A DNA stretch of 44,824 nucleotides from a virus (lineage: Duplodnaviria; Heunggongvirae; Uroviricota; Caudoviricetes): positions 1 to 44,824 of the IMG/VR virus record IMGVR_UViG_2778261573_000004, one strand, 5' to 3'. Made by a program: the position numbers and the translations under genes. Below are positions 1 through 32,380 of this stretch, in pieces. Under the pieces are notes generated by a model. That model worked only from the letters and a program-made list of their open reading frames with translations. It was not told the origin of the DNA and did not search any database. Numbering within the stretch: the first letter of the stretch is position 1; every line of letters starts with the position of its first letter.

Positions 1-549
1 TCAGCTAGCTGGAAACTTTTTATACAGAGTTGAGAGCCCTACTCCATACGTTTTTGATACGCTTTGTCGTGATTCACCGGTTGCCATCCGCTCCCCCATT
101 TCCCGCCATTGCTCATCCGTGAACTTAGGCCTGCGACCACCAACTCGCCCTTTTGCCCTGGCTACGGCCAGCCCTGCTAAGGTACGTTCGCTATTAAGAT
201 CAGATTCATATTGTGCTGCGGAAAGGATGTTACGAAAGTTATAGCGGCCGCTGGCTGTTTTGAGATCCACGCCATCGGTAATACTGCGGAAGTTGATACC
301 CTTTTCCTGTAACTGCTGGAACATCAACAGCGCATGCAGAACGTTGCGGCCTATCCTGTCCAGCTTCCAGACCACCAGTTCATCCCCCGGCTGCATAGTG
401 GCGATCAGCCGTTTTAGAACCGGCCGATTCGATTTCCTCCCGCTGGCATGCTCTTCAAAAATTTTCTCACAACCCGCTGACTTGAGCGCCGTTAGTTGCA
501 ATTCAGTGTCCTGGTGGTTTGTTGATACTCGGGCATAACCGTAAATCAT
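1..549 (-). CDS. pin: Serine recombinase, DNA invertase (Pin/Gin/Hin/Cin family)
   Basis: Protein from MIYGYARVSTNHQDTELQ has the resolvase-type N-terminal catalytic Ser motif and a C-terminal HTH; ATG at 549-547 with RBS AGGAGA upstream; lies next to an invertible tail-fibre segment. The longer ORF to 708 is rejected as an upstream extension. Confidence 0.9.
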   Translation of the reverse strand: MIYGYARVSTNHQDTELQLTALKSAGCEKIFEEHASGRKSNRPVLKRLIATMQPGDELVVWKLDRIGRNVLHALLMFQQLQEKGINFRSITDGVDLKTASGRYNFRNILSAAQYESDLNSERTLAGLAVARAKGRVGGRRPKFTDEQWREMGERMATGESRQSVSKTYGVGLSTLYKKFPAS

Positions 550-608
550 GGGATTTCTCCTGTTATGAAAACAGGAGAAACGGCGAAGCATCACCAGATT
601 TTTGATGG

Positions 609-634
609 TTATAAAAAAGGTTGGTTTGGGAGAA
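609..634. other. Invertase crossover site, left copy (cix/gix-like)
   Basis: Reverse complement reads TTCTCCCAAACCAACC..., sharing 14 identical nt (TTCTCCCAAACCAA) in inverted orientation with the site at 2554-2579; both sites encode the same peptide LGLGE in the two alternative fibre reading frames. Confidence 0.75.
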
Positions 635-1077: not shown

Positions 1078-1521
1078 ATGAACTCAGTATTCTTTTCACC
1101 CGCAAGTAAAAGTTTTTATCTGCAAGAATTGTTTCCAGAATATGAGGATGCGGGAACGCTTCCTGATGATGTTATTGAAATTACCAGAGAAACATATGAG
1201 CAATTTCTTGGGCTGCATCCAGAAGGGAAAGAAATTGGCGCTGACAGTTCAGGACGGCCAATATGGATTAATTCCCCGCCGCCTTCAAAAGAGGATGAGA
1301 TGCTGGCGGCTGAAATGAAAAAGATATCTTTGGTTTCAGAAGTCAATACCTACATCAATACCCATCAGTGGCCTGGCAAAGCTGCTATTGGTCGTCTGAA
1401 AGGTTACGAGCTGGAACAATATAATTTATGGCTGGATTATCTGGACGCACTGGAACTGGTTGATACCTCCAGTGCTCCAGATATTGAATGGCCTACGCCT
1501 CCGGTAGTTCAGGCCAGATGA
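1078..1521 (+). CDS. Tail fibre assembly chaperone, alternative copy (Tfa/U-prime-like)
   Basis: 147 aa ending in the conserved Tfa-type C-terminus (IEWPTPP); immediately follows the alternative fibre segment inside the invertible region. Confidence 0.65.
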   Translation: MNSVFFSPASKSFYLQELFPEYEDAGTLPDDVIEITRETYEQFLGLHPEGKEIGADSSGRPIWINSPPPSKEDEMLAAEMKKISLVSEVNTYINTHQWPGKAAIGRLKGYELEQYNLWLDYLDALELVDTSSAPDIEWPTPPVVQAR

Positions 1522-2098: not shown

Positions 2099-2850
2099 GC
2101 AGCCCTCACAATATAATTAAAGGCGATGTTACGGGAGCGGGTTTCAGATGCTGTGCGAACTGAGCGAGATGCGTCGAATGTCCAGTTATAAGCGCCATAA
2201 CCCTCAATAATTTCGGTTTCCTTTAGACCTGTAGATAATACTTGCCCATGTTGACTAAATGGCCCTGAACTAAGTACGTCTCTAAAAAGCTGGGTACGCC
2301 CAAAAGAACCAACAATATTCTGAATTGCATCATTCTGTGCAGATAATAAGTTACGACCAGAGTCAATCCCGCGCCCATCATCCCAGCCACGAATAAATTC
2401 ACCGCGTAAATCTGGTAATTTTAATGTTGGGTAAGCCTTTGCCAGATTTGGGTACTTTTCAGAAGAAAATACTGCTCCGTTACATTTTAGCCACCCCGTT
2501 GGCGGAGTGGCTGAAGGCCACGGAACAGGCACACCAACCGGTAATGCAGAGCCTTCTCCCAAACCAAGGTTTGTGAGAGCCGTAGAAATCGCCGCTGCAC
2601 CATCTGATTTGATATCGGCAAATGGGTTTGCACGGCTCAGTGTGAGTTTTTGAATGGCTTTTAAAACCTGAGTCATATCGTTAATGTCGAGCGCCAATCC
2701 TGCTGACTCTACGATATGCGCTAACTCTTCCTGCATGGCATTAAACGCTGCTGCCCGCAGCCTCGTTGCGGCAATACCACCAGCAACACTTCCATCAGTA
2801 TATTTGCCATCCTGCGTTGCAGTGGCTTCGACTTGCCCGATTCGGAGCAT
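2095..2850 (-). CDS. Tail fibre protein, constant N-terminus plus currently expressed variable C-terminus with tail-collar-like motif
   Basis: 251 aa; the crossover site at 2554-2579 falls inside the gene (peptide NLGLGE); C-terminal part carries WLKCNGAVFSSEKYPNLAKAY...LPDLRGEFIRGWDDGRGID, resembling phage tail-collar fibre domains. Confidence 0.8.
   Translation of the reverse strand: MLRIGQVEATATQDGKYTDGSVAGGIAATRLRAAAFNAMQEELAHIVESAGLALDINDMTQVLKAIQKLTLSRANPFADIKSDGAAAISTALTNLGLGEGSALPVGVPVPWPSATPPTGWLKCNGAVFSSEKYPNLAKAYPTLKLPDLRGEFIRGWDDGRGIDSGRNLLSAQNDAIQNIVGSFGRTQLFRDVLSSGPFSQHGQVLSTGLKETEIIEGYGAYNWTFDASRSVRTASETRSRNIAFNYIVRAA
2554..2579. other. Invertase crossover site, right copy (cix/gix-like)
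   Basis: TTCTCCCAAACCAAGGTTTGTGAGAG, a 12-2-12 imperfect palindrome with central AA, typical of hix/gix/cix sites; inverted copy of the 609-634 site. Confidence 0.75.
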
Positions 2851-3495: not shown

Positions 3496-4634
3496 ACAAA
3501 ATTCACCCCGCCAAGCACCGGAATTTCGCCAACAGCAAAGGTGATATTGGCCGTCGGAGAGTTAAGAATATAGCCCGTCGTGCCGCTAACACCGCCGATA
3601 CTCCCGTTAATATCAGAGAGGTAAACTTTCCCAGAACCATCAGGGTTAGCTTCATCAAAAAACAGCGCCGTCAGCGCGTCTTTTATCCCCTGAACTGTGG
3701 TGCTGTCGGCATTTTTGATCCCAGAGATTTCAATATTGATGACTTTCTTGATCGGGGAACATACGAAAACAATGGCAGTGTCTGTCTGCTGCGGATAGAT
3801 GTGGTCGGCGACAGCGAGCTGGTCTCCGGTGGCTTTAACAGCCCCCCAGTCCTCAAGTTGGGATATTCCGTCGGTACCGACCGGAAACCCACCATTGTCA
3901 TTCCGATCACACATGATATACACGCCAACGGTCCCGGCCCCGTTCAGACGCCGCTTTACCCACGCGCGGGTGACGCCCGAAACCTCAAGCGCCCATTTTT
4001 TATAATCGGCGTCGCTTCCACCCTGAGGCGGATTCTGCCATGCCAGCAAGCCACGACTGCGAAAATCCTCTTCCGTTTCAATATCGGCTCCGCCGGTCGC
4101 AGCGGACAGTAACGTTACCTGTGGATCCACGCCAGCAATATTCGCGTCCAGGGTCATTATGGTCCCGGCATCAGCGTTACCGCGCGCGCCTCCACCCGTT
4201 ACATCACTGGTAATATCCGGCAGTATGGCCGTCACCGCGACGATACCAAATCCATCTGCCTGAATTTTAAGATCTGCATCCGTCCGGTACTGGTATCCGT
4301 CCCCGCGGTTAATGATCGAGCCAACAGGGATAATACAGTCAACACTGCCACTAGCCTGTACCGCAGGCGACTTCGCCGCTGCAGCTGGTTTTCTGAATAC
4401 CTGCTTAAGGGCCATCCACCCGGCGAGATACTCATCGGTAGAGGTAAACGGGTTTGTCTGCAGGGCAATATAGTCAAGGTAGGCGTAATGCAGATGCCCC
4501 ATCCCCGCATCCATGTCAGCCAGTACCTTCAGGTTCGCGAAGCGCAGGAGCGCACCAACATCCTCAAGCTCCGCCTGCATAAATTTCCGGTTTCCGTCGC
4601 GGAGTTCGCTCAGCGTCGGTCGTTTAAACGGCAT
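3492..4634 (-). CDS. Baseplate J-like protein (Mu gp47-like)
   Basis: Start taken at MPFKRPTLSEL (ATG 4634-4632), directly after the stop of the upstream gene; size and position match baseplate J. The 5-prime ORF extension to 4772 is rejected. Confidence 0.75.
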   Translation of the reverse strand: MPFKRPTLSELRDGNRKFMQAELEDVGALLRFANLKVLADMDAGMGHLHYAYLDYIALQTNPFTSTDEYLAGWMALKQVFRKPAAAAKSPAVQASGSVDCIIPVGSIINRGDGYQYRTDADLKIQADGFGIVAVTAILPDITSDVTGGGARGNADAGTIMTLDANIAGVDPQVTLLSAATGGADIETEEDFRSRGLLAWQNPPQGGSDADYKKWALEVSGVTRAWVKRRLNGAGTVGVYIMCDRNDNGGFPVGTDGISQLEDWGAVKATGDQLAVADHIYPQQTDTAIVFVCSPIKKVINIEISGIKNADSTTVQGIKDALTALFFDEANPDGSGKVYLSDINGSIGGVSGTTGYILNSPTANITFAVGEIPVLGGVNFV

Positions 4635-5073: not shown

Positions 5074-5654
5074 GTCACCTGATCCTCTGTTTTTTGGCTG
5101 CGGATATTGTCATTGCCACTCTGGGCATTTTTAACCACATGATCATGGTCATTATGTGCATCCCGCAGCTCTTTCAGTGTTCGGGTATTGGTTTCACAGT
5201 TATCAACAATGTCACCCGTGCACCTCAGGATCGGGGTATTTGCAAGGATCCCCTGGCTGGCATTGATGGTCACGTTAGTGGCGTTATTGACCTCAACATT
5301 CTGGCCCTTTGCATCCAGGAAGATCCCCTTCTCCGTCAGGAGAATATTAAGGCCCCACTGGTTATACATGACCGTTTCGCCCGCTTTCAGGCCTGTATGA
5401 CGGAACCCCTGATGGTTGGACGCAATTACCACCGCGCTGGAACGATCACCGCCAATAAAAGCCAGAACCACGTCAGTCCCTGACGGCAGGCCGGATGAAA
5501 AGCCAAATTCTGCCATCCGCGGAGCGCTGGCCACCTCCAGCGGAGTCTGGTACTGGATAGACTGCACCACCCCACCATCTTTCATAGCCGTGATCCGGCC
5601 AATCCCCAGCATGCCGGCGATCCTGGTCGCTGCATGTTTAAATAGTTGCTTCAT
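5070..5654 (-). CDS. Baseplate assembly protein V / spike (Mu gp45-like)
   Basis: 194 aa with a Gly/Val-rich beta-rich core; position between the gpD-like and gp46-like genes. Confidence 0.7.
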   Translation of the reverse strand: MKQLFKHAATRIAGMLGIGRITAMKDGGVVQSIQYQTPLEVASAPRMAEFGFSSGLPSGTDVVLAFIGGDRSSAVVIASNHQGFRHTGLKAGETVMYNQWGLNILLTEKGIFLDAKGQNVEVNNATNVTINASQGILANTPILRCTGDIVDNCETNTRTLKELRDAHNDHDHVVKNAQSGNDNIRSQKTEDQVT

Positions 5655-6736
5655 GTATTGAATCCCGCCAGGTTCTGGTAGAAGGCATATGGCTGAACGG
5701 AGAATGCTTCAGGCGGCATCAGCGTCATGCGTGCATGGGTGCCGTAGTCATCGCGCATATAGGTGACTTCTGCCAGTAGCAATTCAGTCTTCGGCAACCG
5801 TAAGGTGGGAAGATCAACGGGGATCAATGTGTTTGGTTCCCACAGTTTCCCGTCTTTATCCCGCCAGGAATCGATGGTTACCGAGAGCTGTTTTGAACGT
5901 CCGTACCGCCGGTTCATTTCCCAGTCGATCGCACTTTGTGCCTGTTGAGTAGCCATCAGGGTACTTTCCACAATCGATATATGTTTTCGGTACCGCATGC
6001 GGGCGGCCTCCGGATCTCTCGCCGTTGCCAGAGTCACAGCGTCATAGGCCGTATCAGGCGAATACCCTGCAATTGGAGAAACGCTCATTGATACACCGAC
6101 ATAATCTGAAAACCTGTCAGCCATCGATTTGCGGTAGTATGCCTGCTCGACATTTACCCCTTCGGCTATCCCACTTGCCGCACGACGTGTTCCCACCCGG
6201 GTCAGTAACAGGTTTCCATCGGGCTGATCGTAGTAAAGCAGAGCAGACCATCTGGCCACCCGATCGATGACTTCTTGCGGAGACTCACCCCAGTTCAGAG
6301 TGAACTGGGGTACCTTCACAAGTTCATCAACATCCGTGGTTACGGTGATGCCGTAGTAGGATGCCAGGCGAGAAGCAATTTCAAGCGCATTACTGGCATT
6401 GATGACGTTGTTAGGCCACTCGGCTGAGCAATCCACCAGGTCCTGACATTTGCTCCTGCCCGTGGCGCGGACCTCATGGCGGGAGCGCGATAGTGCGGGT
6501 TCCCAGTCATCAACATATCCCGTCAGTGTCAGATCATCTCCGATACGAACTTCACAAGACATTCCCTCTTCAACGAGTTGACGATCTTCGTTGCCAGGGA
6601 AGTAATCCATTAGCCCAAGATCGAAATCAGAGGGAAAACGCTCAATACCCCGCGTTACCCGGACAGAATCCCACCCCTCGATGATTTTGCCGTCGACCGT
6701 CAAAGAAACAACATCCAGATCGCTGTCTGCATTCAT
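5651..6736 (-). CDS. Tail protein, phage late control D-like (Mu gp44/P-like)
   Basis: 361 aa; N-terminus MNADSDLDVVSLTVDGKIIEGWDSVRVTRG is typical of gpD/gp44 baseplate hub proteins. Confidence 0.8.
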   Translation of the reverse strand: MNADSDLDVVSLTVDGKIIEGWDSVRVTRGIERFPSDFDLGLMDYFPGNEDRQLVEEGMSCEVRIGDDLTLTGYVDDWEPALSRSRHEVRATGRSKCQDLVDCSAEWPNNVINASNALEIASRLASYYGITVTTDVDELVKVPQFTLNWGESPQEVIDRVARWSALLYYDQPDGNLLLTRVGTRRAASGIAEGVNVEQAYYRKSMADRFSDYVGVSMSVSPIAGYSPDTAYDAVTLATARDPEAARMRYRKHISIVESTLMATQQAQSAIDWEMNRRYGRSKQLSVTIDSWRDKDGKLWEPNTLIPVDLPTLRLPKTELLLAEVTYMRDDYGTHARMTLMPPEAFSVQPYAFYQNLAGFNT

Positions 6737-32012: not shown

Positions 32013-32380
32013 ACGGCCTCCTTGACGGAAACCGCAGAATGCAGAAAATCGCAGGTGCATGTCTGCATCTGTGACAAGGCGATGAGTTCAGATTGTGGTC
32101 GCATTTAAGTCCCCTTAAATGCGCAGAAGTCTTACCGTCGGGCGTTCAACTCCGACGACGGTTAAATTATGGCTGGTTGATTATGGAAAATCAACATAAG
32201 AGAAAGGCCTTCGAAGAGGCCATTGGTGTCTTGATGCTGGTTTATAAATCTCTACCCGCCGGGATGATTCACAAAATACATTTGCAATTAGTACTTCAGG
32301 GAAGGCTGGATTTGATCTAGCTTGTTAAACAATCCGTAGATTATGATATCGGGATAAAAAACAGAAGGGATGGCCTGGTT

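Follow-up and report, generated by a model that had tools for sequence, protein, structure and literature searches.

At the left end of the window, i.e., the whole stretch of 44,824 nucleotides that was analysed, lies a DNA invertase gene on the minus strand. Table 1 lists its position together with the other features discussed below. The encoded protein matches the Pfam families PF00239 (Resolvase, 3.6e-39) and PF02796 (HTH_7, 1.5e-9) and is 100% identical to the invertase of phage mEp237. The gene is a serine recombinase/DNA invertase gene, as given by both domains and by the adjoining invertible tail-fibre segment with its inverted 26-bp sites. About 1.95 kb of DNA lie between the two crossover sites, and this segment encodes alternative C-termini of the fibre as well as two tail-fibre assembly genes in opposed orientation. 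Pfam matches in or near this segment are Collar, Caudo_TAP (twice) and Gp53-like_C, and the Collar and Caudo_TAP genes are oppositely oriented between the two sites.

Table 1. Features at the invertase end of the window. Positions count from the first nucleotide of the window; scores are those of the dimer position weight matrix (PWM) for crossover sites.
Feature	Position	Strand	Details
DNA invertase gene (serine recombinase)	1..549	-	182 aa, N-terminus MIYGYARVS; ATG is the complement of 549-547, stop at 3-1
Promoter-like TTGATA-16-AATCAT	522-549	+	antisense to invertase codons 1-10; 9/12 matches
Palindrome (hairpin 2)	554..580	-	5' arm UUUCUCCUGUU (580-570), loop UUCAU (569-565), 3' arm AACAGGAGAAA (564-554)
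Shine-Dalgarno (SD) AGGAG of the invertase gene	557..561	-	part of the 3' arm; 7 nt from the ATG; direct reading
Hairpin 1, GGUGA-ugcu-UCGCC	581..596	-	stem 595-591 with 586-582; directly 5' of the palindrome
Invertase-proximal crossover site, 26 bp	609..634	.	TTATAAAAAAGG-TT-GGTTTGGGAGAA; score 23.8
Distal crossover site, 26 bp	2554..2579	.	within the tail-fibre gene; TTCTCCCAAACC-AA-GGTTTGTGAGAG; score 27.3

With regard to transcription, the tail-fibre operon is on the same strand as the invertase gene and is directed toward it through the invertible segment. The two tail-fibre assembly genes (1078-1521 on the plus strand, 2098-1493 on the minus strand) overlap with their 3' ends at window positions 1493-1521. 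This overlap leaves no room for a terminator within the invertible segment, such that late transcripts must continue toward the invertase gene. Since operon and invertase gene are co-directional, read-through transcripts would also contain the hairpin that is studied in the following.

Between the invertase gene and the proximal crossover site, positions 554-580 form a perfect inverted repeat with arms of 11 bp (554-564 and 570-580) and a spacer of 5 nt. On the plus strand it reads T-TTCTCCTGTT-ATGAA-AACAGGAGAA-A, where T554 and A580 pair. The initial annotation had described a 10-bp repeat with a 5-bp spacer at 555-579; the sequence it gave is exact, but the additional T554/A580 pair extends the arms to 11 bp. 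It had furthermore placed the palindrome over the ribosome binding site (RBS) and right at the ATG of the invertase gene. The first part holds, i.e., the palindrome covers the RBS, whereas the stem stops 4 nt short of the ATG and the gene is read from the minus strand. The spacer ATGAA on the plus strand is not the invertase start codon. In mRNA sense, the leader reads 5'-G UUUCUCCUGUU UUCAU AACAGGAGAAA UCCC AUG, and a G581.U553 pair is possible in the RNA, which would result in a stem of 12 bp.

Several generic readings of such a palindrome were tried and rejected. The palindrome is not an intrinsic (Rho-independent) terminator because no U-run follows the stem on either strand; the sequence after it is AAAUCCCAUG on the minus and ACGGCGAAG on the plus strand. 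A search with the Rfam covariance models yielded two chance-level matches (E-values 4.9 and 8.7), which are far under the gathering scores. We also compared the palindrome by eye with LexA, CRP, Fis and LacI-type operators, none of which fits. The nearest is the LexA box, a 16-bp element with the consensus CTGT-N8-ACAG. The palindrome's core is CTGT-TTTCATA-ACAG, i.e., N7, and a LexA box was rejected given that its spacing is off by one base. The GenBank record of phi80 marks LexA boxes elsewhere and none at its copy of the palindrome.

RNA folding of the leader, which the initial annotation had named as a check, supports a local structure around the RBS. The minus strand from 600 to 520 is predicted to form hairpin 1 as well as the palindrome hairpin with a minimum free energy (MFE) of -27.8 kcal/mol (z = -5.0), and none of 200 dinucleotide shuffles folds as well. 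For the palindrome hairpin alone, the predicted free energy is -15.4 kcal/mol. The computed probability of the invertase SD to be unpaired is about 0.002 for positions -14..-6 and 0.0002 for AGGAG itself. Compared with the other gene starts of the window (73 in total, called crudely), it is the least accessible SD with a value of 0.002, followed by 0.068 for the next start and a median of 0.49. The cost to unfold the ribosome footprint is 19.1 kcal/mol for the invertase gene, which is the third highest of the 73 starts (median 10.2). That is, the SD is predicted to be base-paired within a stable local helix.

We next turn to the question of how often such a repeat is expected and found. Within the 44.8-kb window, two perfect repeats of the hairpin type (arms of 11 bp or more, loops of 3-8 nt) are observed, while 0.085 are expected based on 200 first-order Markov simulations of the window. 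The exact pattern of the palindrome is found in 89 contigs among 2.9 million viral contigs, and 80/80 of the copies listed are located directly upstream of an invertase ORF. Of 80 loci identified by protein alone, the arms are exact in 74 and deviate at one position in another one, and the remaining 5 carry a different leader. A palindrome-blind retrieval, which used the 3' arm of hairpin 1 and the N-terminal codons as query, retrieved the exact repeat 55 times and once with a single mismatch, in addition to 2 unrelated genes. The leader is also present in about 154 of 5,426 complete E. coli genomes. The palindrome is therefore more than a chance repeat, is conserved and, among the copies listed, is linked exclusively to the invertase family. 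Two further searches contributed little. The metagenome pattern TTCGCC-N28-36-ATGATTTAYGG is too loose for finding relatives, i.e., only 7/120 matches start with MIYGY (4 distinct leaders, 1 true relative), and a search of genome contigs returned only distant recombinases with at most 55% identity, which served as outgroup.

In total, 17 distinct leader variants were compared, in which both arms are invariant. The loops are UUCAU, UUUAC, UUCAC or UUUAU, the spacer to the ATG is, e.g., UCCC, CACUC, UACCC, UUCCC or UAUCU, and variation is also seen in the 30 nt upstream. Among the stem pairs, 9/12 never vary across the 17 leaders, and the outermost pair, which changes from U-A to C-G, is the only one with both sides altered. 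Within the family, covariation is thus minimal. The stem part outside the SD (UGUU/AACA) is fully invariant, and no G.U pair is found among the 11 bp. Two natural variants affect the 5' arm. In the E. coli leader L545, a C is replaced by U opposite G, such that a U.G pair is kept in the sense RNA. In L016/L546, a U-to-C exchange gives a C.A mismatch in the sense RNA and a G.U pair in the antisense RNA only. Judged from these sequences, within-family variation alone does not separate an RNA from a DNA function.

Whether the hairpin can form depends on where transcription starts. The 20 nt from UCGCC (the 3' arm of hairpin 1) to the palindrome loop are free of A in 17/17 leaders. A scan of the 17 leaders for hexamers that could serve as -10 element (nAnnnT) found no start of such a hexamer between columns 19 and 52 of the alignment. 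Candidates for a -10 element are limited to GATRYT within hairpin 1 (window 592-587; 14/17 leaders) and an A-rich hexamer farther upstream. Since no nAnnnT hexamer is available from there down to the SD, a sigma-70 start should be located at or upstream of the stem base, and a promoter within the palindrome is excluded for lack of any such hexamer there. The absence of the hexamer thus argues that both arms are transcribed as part of the invertase mRNA. The predicted occlusion is tolerant in this respect, i.e., the SD is still occluded (P <= 0.003) with the 5' end placed anywhere up to 4 nt inside the 5' arm. A Cappable-seq supplement checked for transcription starts holds no entry for pinE.

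The sole well-placed -10-like hexamer of the window's leader, GATGCT (592-587), is overlapped by hairpin 1. Other features of this upstream region were considered and discarded. The stop codon (TAA) of a minus-strand ORF (730->563) is located in the loop of the hairpin, and ribosomes that translate this ORF could open the stem; such translational coupling was rejected because the TAA stop is missing from the UUCAC and UUUAC loop variants. The invertase frame is open back to position 708 on the minus strand, across the crossover site, and comprises an in-frame GTG (594-592) and an in-frame ATG (591-589), which precede the invertase ATG by 15 and 14 codons, respectively, without an intervening stop. 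An N-terminally extended invertase was rejected nevertheless, given that the ATG at 591-589 is restricted to the leader type of the window and that the leader type B has an in-frame TGA. Finally, a further upstream hairpin ("hp0") showed apparent covariation (CCTG/CAGG, CTGA/TCAG, CCAAA/TTTGG), which is inconsistent across variants; it partly overlaps hairpin 1 and was not retained.

We then evaluated whether the palindrome resembles a crossover site. Here, the initial annotation had pointed to a TTCTCC arm in common with the crossover sites and had suggested a degenerate third recombination site. The hexamer is indeed present in the segment-side half-site of each crossover site, whereas the other half-sites (TTATAAAAAAGG, CTCTCACAAACC) do not contain it. 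Within the palindrome it is to be expected anyway, because it is the complement of the SD-containing GGAGAA. For a quantitative comparison, a weight matrix was built from 31 of 40 distinct proximal crossover sites in relatives. The core is AA in 39 of the 40 sites and GA in the remaining one, and conservation is highest for AAA. The information of the sites resides in the A-tract and CC (positions 8-12 of the half-site) as well as in the AA core, with the highest values of 1.2-1.8 bit at positions 8-10, and the outer hexamer is low in information (0.25-0.8 bit per position). The half-sites of the palindrome score -3.8 and -5.7 bits, values that are reached by 10-16% of the 12-mers in the window, whereas true half-sites range from +8.3 to +15.4. 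The best dimer scores in the palindrome region are -7.8 to -8.4 (rank 1545 of 44799 for -7.8), while the two crossover sites of Table 1 are the two top dimer matches of the window.

The architecture differs, too. Sites of the hix type are 26 bp long (PMC3798978), and the two real sites of the window are composed of 12-2-12 bp. The palindrome has a length of 25 bp with the core arms and of 27 bp with the 11-bp arms, and its centre is one base (position 567). It contains neither AAACC/GGTTT nor a 2-bp AA core, and has TGTT at half-site positions 8-10. That is, its likeness to the hix/gix/cix/pix sites consists of inverted symmetry and the outer hexamer TTCTCC, whereas the length of 26 bp, the 12-bp half-sites, the 2-bp core and the A-tract with CC that characterize these sites are all lacking. 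The suggested third recombination site is thus not supported, given its length and symmetry, the missing motifs and the negative half-site scores. It would be a pseudo-crossover site which is occasionally recombined by the invertase. This reading can refer to the common TTCTCC hexamers and to a precedent in P1, where the pseudo-site cixPp is located at the promoter of cin; a literature search on cixPp and on the cin, gin and pin promoters found nothing relevant. Given that each of the defining features tested fails (length, single-base centre, AAACC/GGTTT, core and PWM score), we consider this reading extremely improbable. Judged by these sequence features, the palindrome is not part of the recombination machinery.

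As a side observation, the outer half-site of the proximal crossover site (TTATAAAAAAGG) is very weak, A/T-rich and without TTCTCC. This A/T-rich half would overlap the -35 element of a promoter directed toward the invertase gene, such that binding there could autoregulate the gene.

Structures around the RBS are also predicted for the leaders of other invertases. Invertases of the mEpX1/Eeyore type, with up to 86% protein identity, have a different leader with an anti-SD stem of 6-7 bp (UUCACC...GGUGAA). Among its variants we find compensatory changes (U-A<->G-C, A-U<->G-C, C-G<->U-A) as well as U.G pairs in the sense strand. The invertases of e14 (pinE) and of the Cartapus/P2-like group have yet other stems, which are rich in sense-strand G.U pairs and hold the SD in the 3' arm. 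The anti-SD stems of all three groups (pinE, Cartapus/P2-like and mEpX1/Eeyore-like) are similar to that of the window with regard to the position relative to the start codon, the SD within the 3' arm and a U-rich loop. They differ in strength, i.e., the stems of pinE, Cartapus and Eeyore are 6-9 bp long and imperfect with -6 to -12 kcal/mol, in contrast to the 11-12 bp, perfect pairing and -15.4 kcal/mol of the window. The median SD accessibility is 0.006 for the window type, 0.19 for Eeyore, 0.31 for pinE, 0.52 for distant serine recombinases and 0.49 for controls. The gin leaders of Mu and D108 were examined, too, and show no comparable SD stem. According to these computed structures, SD occlusion is recurrent in the leaders of tail-fibre invertases, with the window as the most extreme case, and is not universal.

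In the leaders of the mEpX1 type (L054, L059-L062, L341-L420), the sequence is entirely different downstream of a common GGC(C)GATAAC/GATACT block. With regard to sequence, the invertase leader appears to be a module whose exchange is independent of the gene. Another observation concerns an extended -10-like motif (TGn + CATSAT), which is found in L083 (D108 gin), L084 (Fels-2), L085 (Cartapus), L091 (e14 pinE) and L261-L340. In these lineages, the motif and the 5' arm of the anti-SD stem overlap. The PinQ paper contains nothing on leaders.

Based on the folding results, we consider it probable that the leader hairpin is a cis-acting translational throttle that hides the invertase SD. Among the three readings offered by the initial annotation (autoregulatory operator, RNA hairpin sequestering the RBS, third recombination site), the RNA hairpin is the best supported one, given the predicted stem energy of -15.4 kcal/mol, the SD's unpaired probability of about 0.002, no internal promoter element, and the compensated anti-SD stems in sister lineages. 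We infer transcription from upstream of position 580, hairpin formation in vivo and lowered translation. The palindrome would act as RNA, namely within the leader that precedes the invertase coding sequence in the minus-strand transcript. Its arms would form a stem of 11-12 bp with a U-rich loop of 5 nt and AGGAG inside the 3' arm, such that the 30S subunit could reach the SD only during rare openings of the stem. Very little recombinase would then be made from any transcript that contains both arms. Such throttled transcripts would come from a weak promoter near the crossover site as well as from read-through of the tail-fibre operon. The likely benefit would be a trace, buffered amount of a DNA-cutting enzyme.

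By simple thermodynamics, a stem of -15 kcal/mol over the SD would almost abolish translation. The trace of invertase that is needed might be provided if the stem breathes, if the U-rich loop offers a standby site for ribosomes or if there is an activator. Furthermore, the invariant UGUU/AACA part and the absence of G.U pairs exceed what SD occlusion needs and would also suit a sequence-specific DNA- or RNA-binding protein. This leads to the most serious competitor, i.e., a DNA operator or accessory site at which a dimeric protein (the invertase or a host factor) blocks RNA polymerase just downstream of the promoter. The perfect two-fold symmetry and the strict invariance of the arms, positions outside the SD included, are in line with an operator, and the outer hexamers TTCTCC are the commonest outer hexamer of crossover half-sites. 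Serine recombinases can bind non-catalytic sites with altered spacing (subsites II and III of Tn3 res), Hin represses its own promoter at hixL, and the cixPp site of P1 is likewise located at a promoter. The palindrome, however, is without AAA and CC (positions 8-12), where the information of the crossover sites resides, and its half-sites score below zero, i.e., no better than the 10-16% of window 12-mers stated above. The hexamer itself contributes only 0.25-0.8 bit per position, is missing from the proximal site's own fixed half-site and is expected in the palindrome as complement of the SD. In other invertase lineages, the stems at this place are imperfect when read as DNA (G.T) and do not resemble the crossover sites of the respective lineage. 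For host factors, the core is near a LexA box but with N7 instead of N8, and a phage-specific repressor is disfavoured by the occurrence of the invertase module in unrelated phage backgrounds. Taken together, we regard an operator as unlikely.

An element that acts on the transcript rather than on translation is rather improbable in our view, for its two versions jointly. In one version, hairpin 1 and the U-rich 5' arm of the palindrome serve as a weak terminator or attenuator that limits read-through from the tail-fibre operon. In the other, transcription starts at G581 and the palindrome is a 5' stem-loop that mainly shields the mRNA from 5'-end-dependent decay. In a terminator scan, hairpin 1 (596->581, minus strand) together with the U-rich arm after it (TTTCTCCTGT) is marked as terminator-like, the pairing of hairpin 1 (GGYGA-N4-UCGCY) survives in relatives via U.G and G.U variants, and a -10 element at GATGCT would place the start at the stem base. 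Yet hairpin 1 has only 5-6 bp and -6.7 kcal/mol, and the tail is not a continuous run of U (UUUCUCCUG, or CUUCUCC for type B). The exact complementarity of the 3' arm and its SD content are explained by neither version, and both versions are compatible with SD occlusion, i.e., they are not alternatives to it. A pair of sense and antisense hairpins was also considered, where an antisense RNA with the same stem and a complementary loop could pair with the leader, which would resemble RNA-OUT of IS10 or plasmid copy-number control. The promoter-like element on the plus strand (Table 1) has a predicted start at about 556, i.e., at the first bases of the palindrome, and both of its hexamers are kept in most relatives. 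All 11 stem pairs are Watson-Crick, as both strands would need, and L016/L546 retains its G.U pair in the antisense RNA only. The conservation of TTGATA/AATCAT, however, is not independent evidence, because the hexamers lie within codons for conserved residues (M-I ... V-S-T). About 0.8 such promoter matches are expected per 500 bp by chance, no conserved terminator is found on the plus strand, and the loop has only 5 nt. We therefore judge this reading very improbable. A dual use of the element, for which the DNA symmetry itself would be selected, is quite improbable for its two versions jointly: either a 25-bp accessory site for an invertase dimer, similar to the res subsites, non-catalytic and with direct feedback on top of the RNA effect, or a stem shared by sense and antisense RNAs, where the antisense promoter would lie within the first ten invertase codons. 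If true, it would add an undescribed regulatory layer to the inversion switches of the Hin/Gin family.

The translational throttle that we favour has relatives among described systems. Fold-back inhibition of the transposase mRNAs of IS10 and IS50 was reportedly described by Davis, Simons and Kleckner in 1985. Like there, an upstream complement pairs with the RBS in the mRNA of a DNA-rearranging enzyme, the enzyme is scarce and read-through is guarded against. Unlike the window's leader, the own promoter of IS10 starts inside the structure and only external transcripts are silenced. Since there is no promoter element inside the window's hairpin, all transcripts should be throttled. In Mu, a translation-inhibiting stem in the mom mRNA is opened by Com, a dedicated phage activator. 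This is similar in that a hairpin in a phage mRNA occludes the translation initiation region, and mom adjoins gin in Mu. For the hairpin of the window, in contrast, no activator is known or predicted, and the invertase module moves between unrelated phages. The closest match is phi80 (GenBank JX871397; L001), where the palindrome is annotated as "IR3" without function directly upstream of pinL, by means of two 11-bp repeat_region features at 3555-3565 and 3571-3581. The leader of phi80 belongs to the "type B" variant, which has the 10-bp core arms of the window; the invertible segment of phi80 differs in that it has decayed into pseudogene fragments. The element is thus a conserved but ordinary kind of control element and not a new mechanism.

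Invertases are enzymes that cut and rejoin chromosomal DNA, and how fast a prophage population flips its tail fibres (host range) depends on the amount of enzyme. If the proposed throttle is true, the RBS block would be the main throttle of a widespread E. coli invertase module and would explain the very low natural levels of invertase. It would furthermore be a practical warning for cloning with the native leader and for invertase switches in synthetic biology. The picture of the inversion mechanism itself is unchanged.

The only other perfect hairpin-type repeat of 11 bp in the window is located at 6287-6311 (ACCCCAGTTCA-GAG-TGAACTGGGGT). It lies inside an ORF of 361 aa on the minus strand (5651-6736), and is not followed by a U-run. 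At 32100-32123, there is a perfect 10-bp inverted repeat (CGCATTTAAG-TCCC-CTTAAATGCG), and close after it there is a second, G+C-rich repeat (GTCGGGCG...CGACGAC region, 32138-32160).
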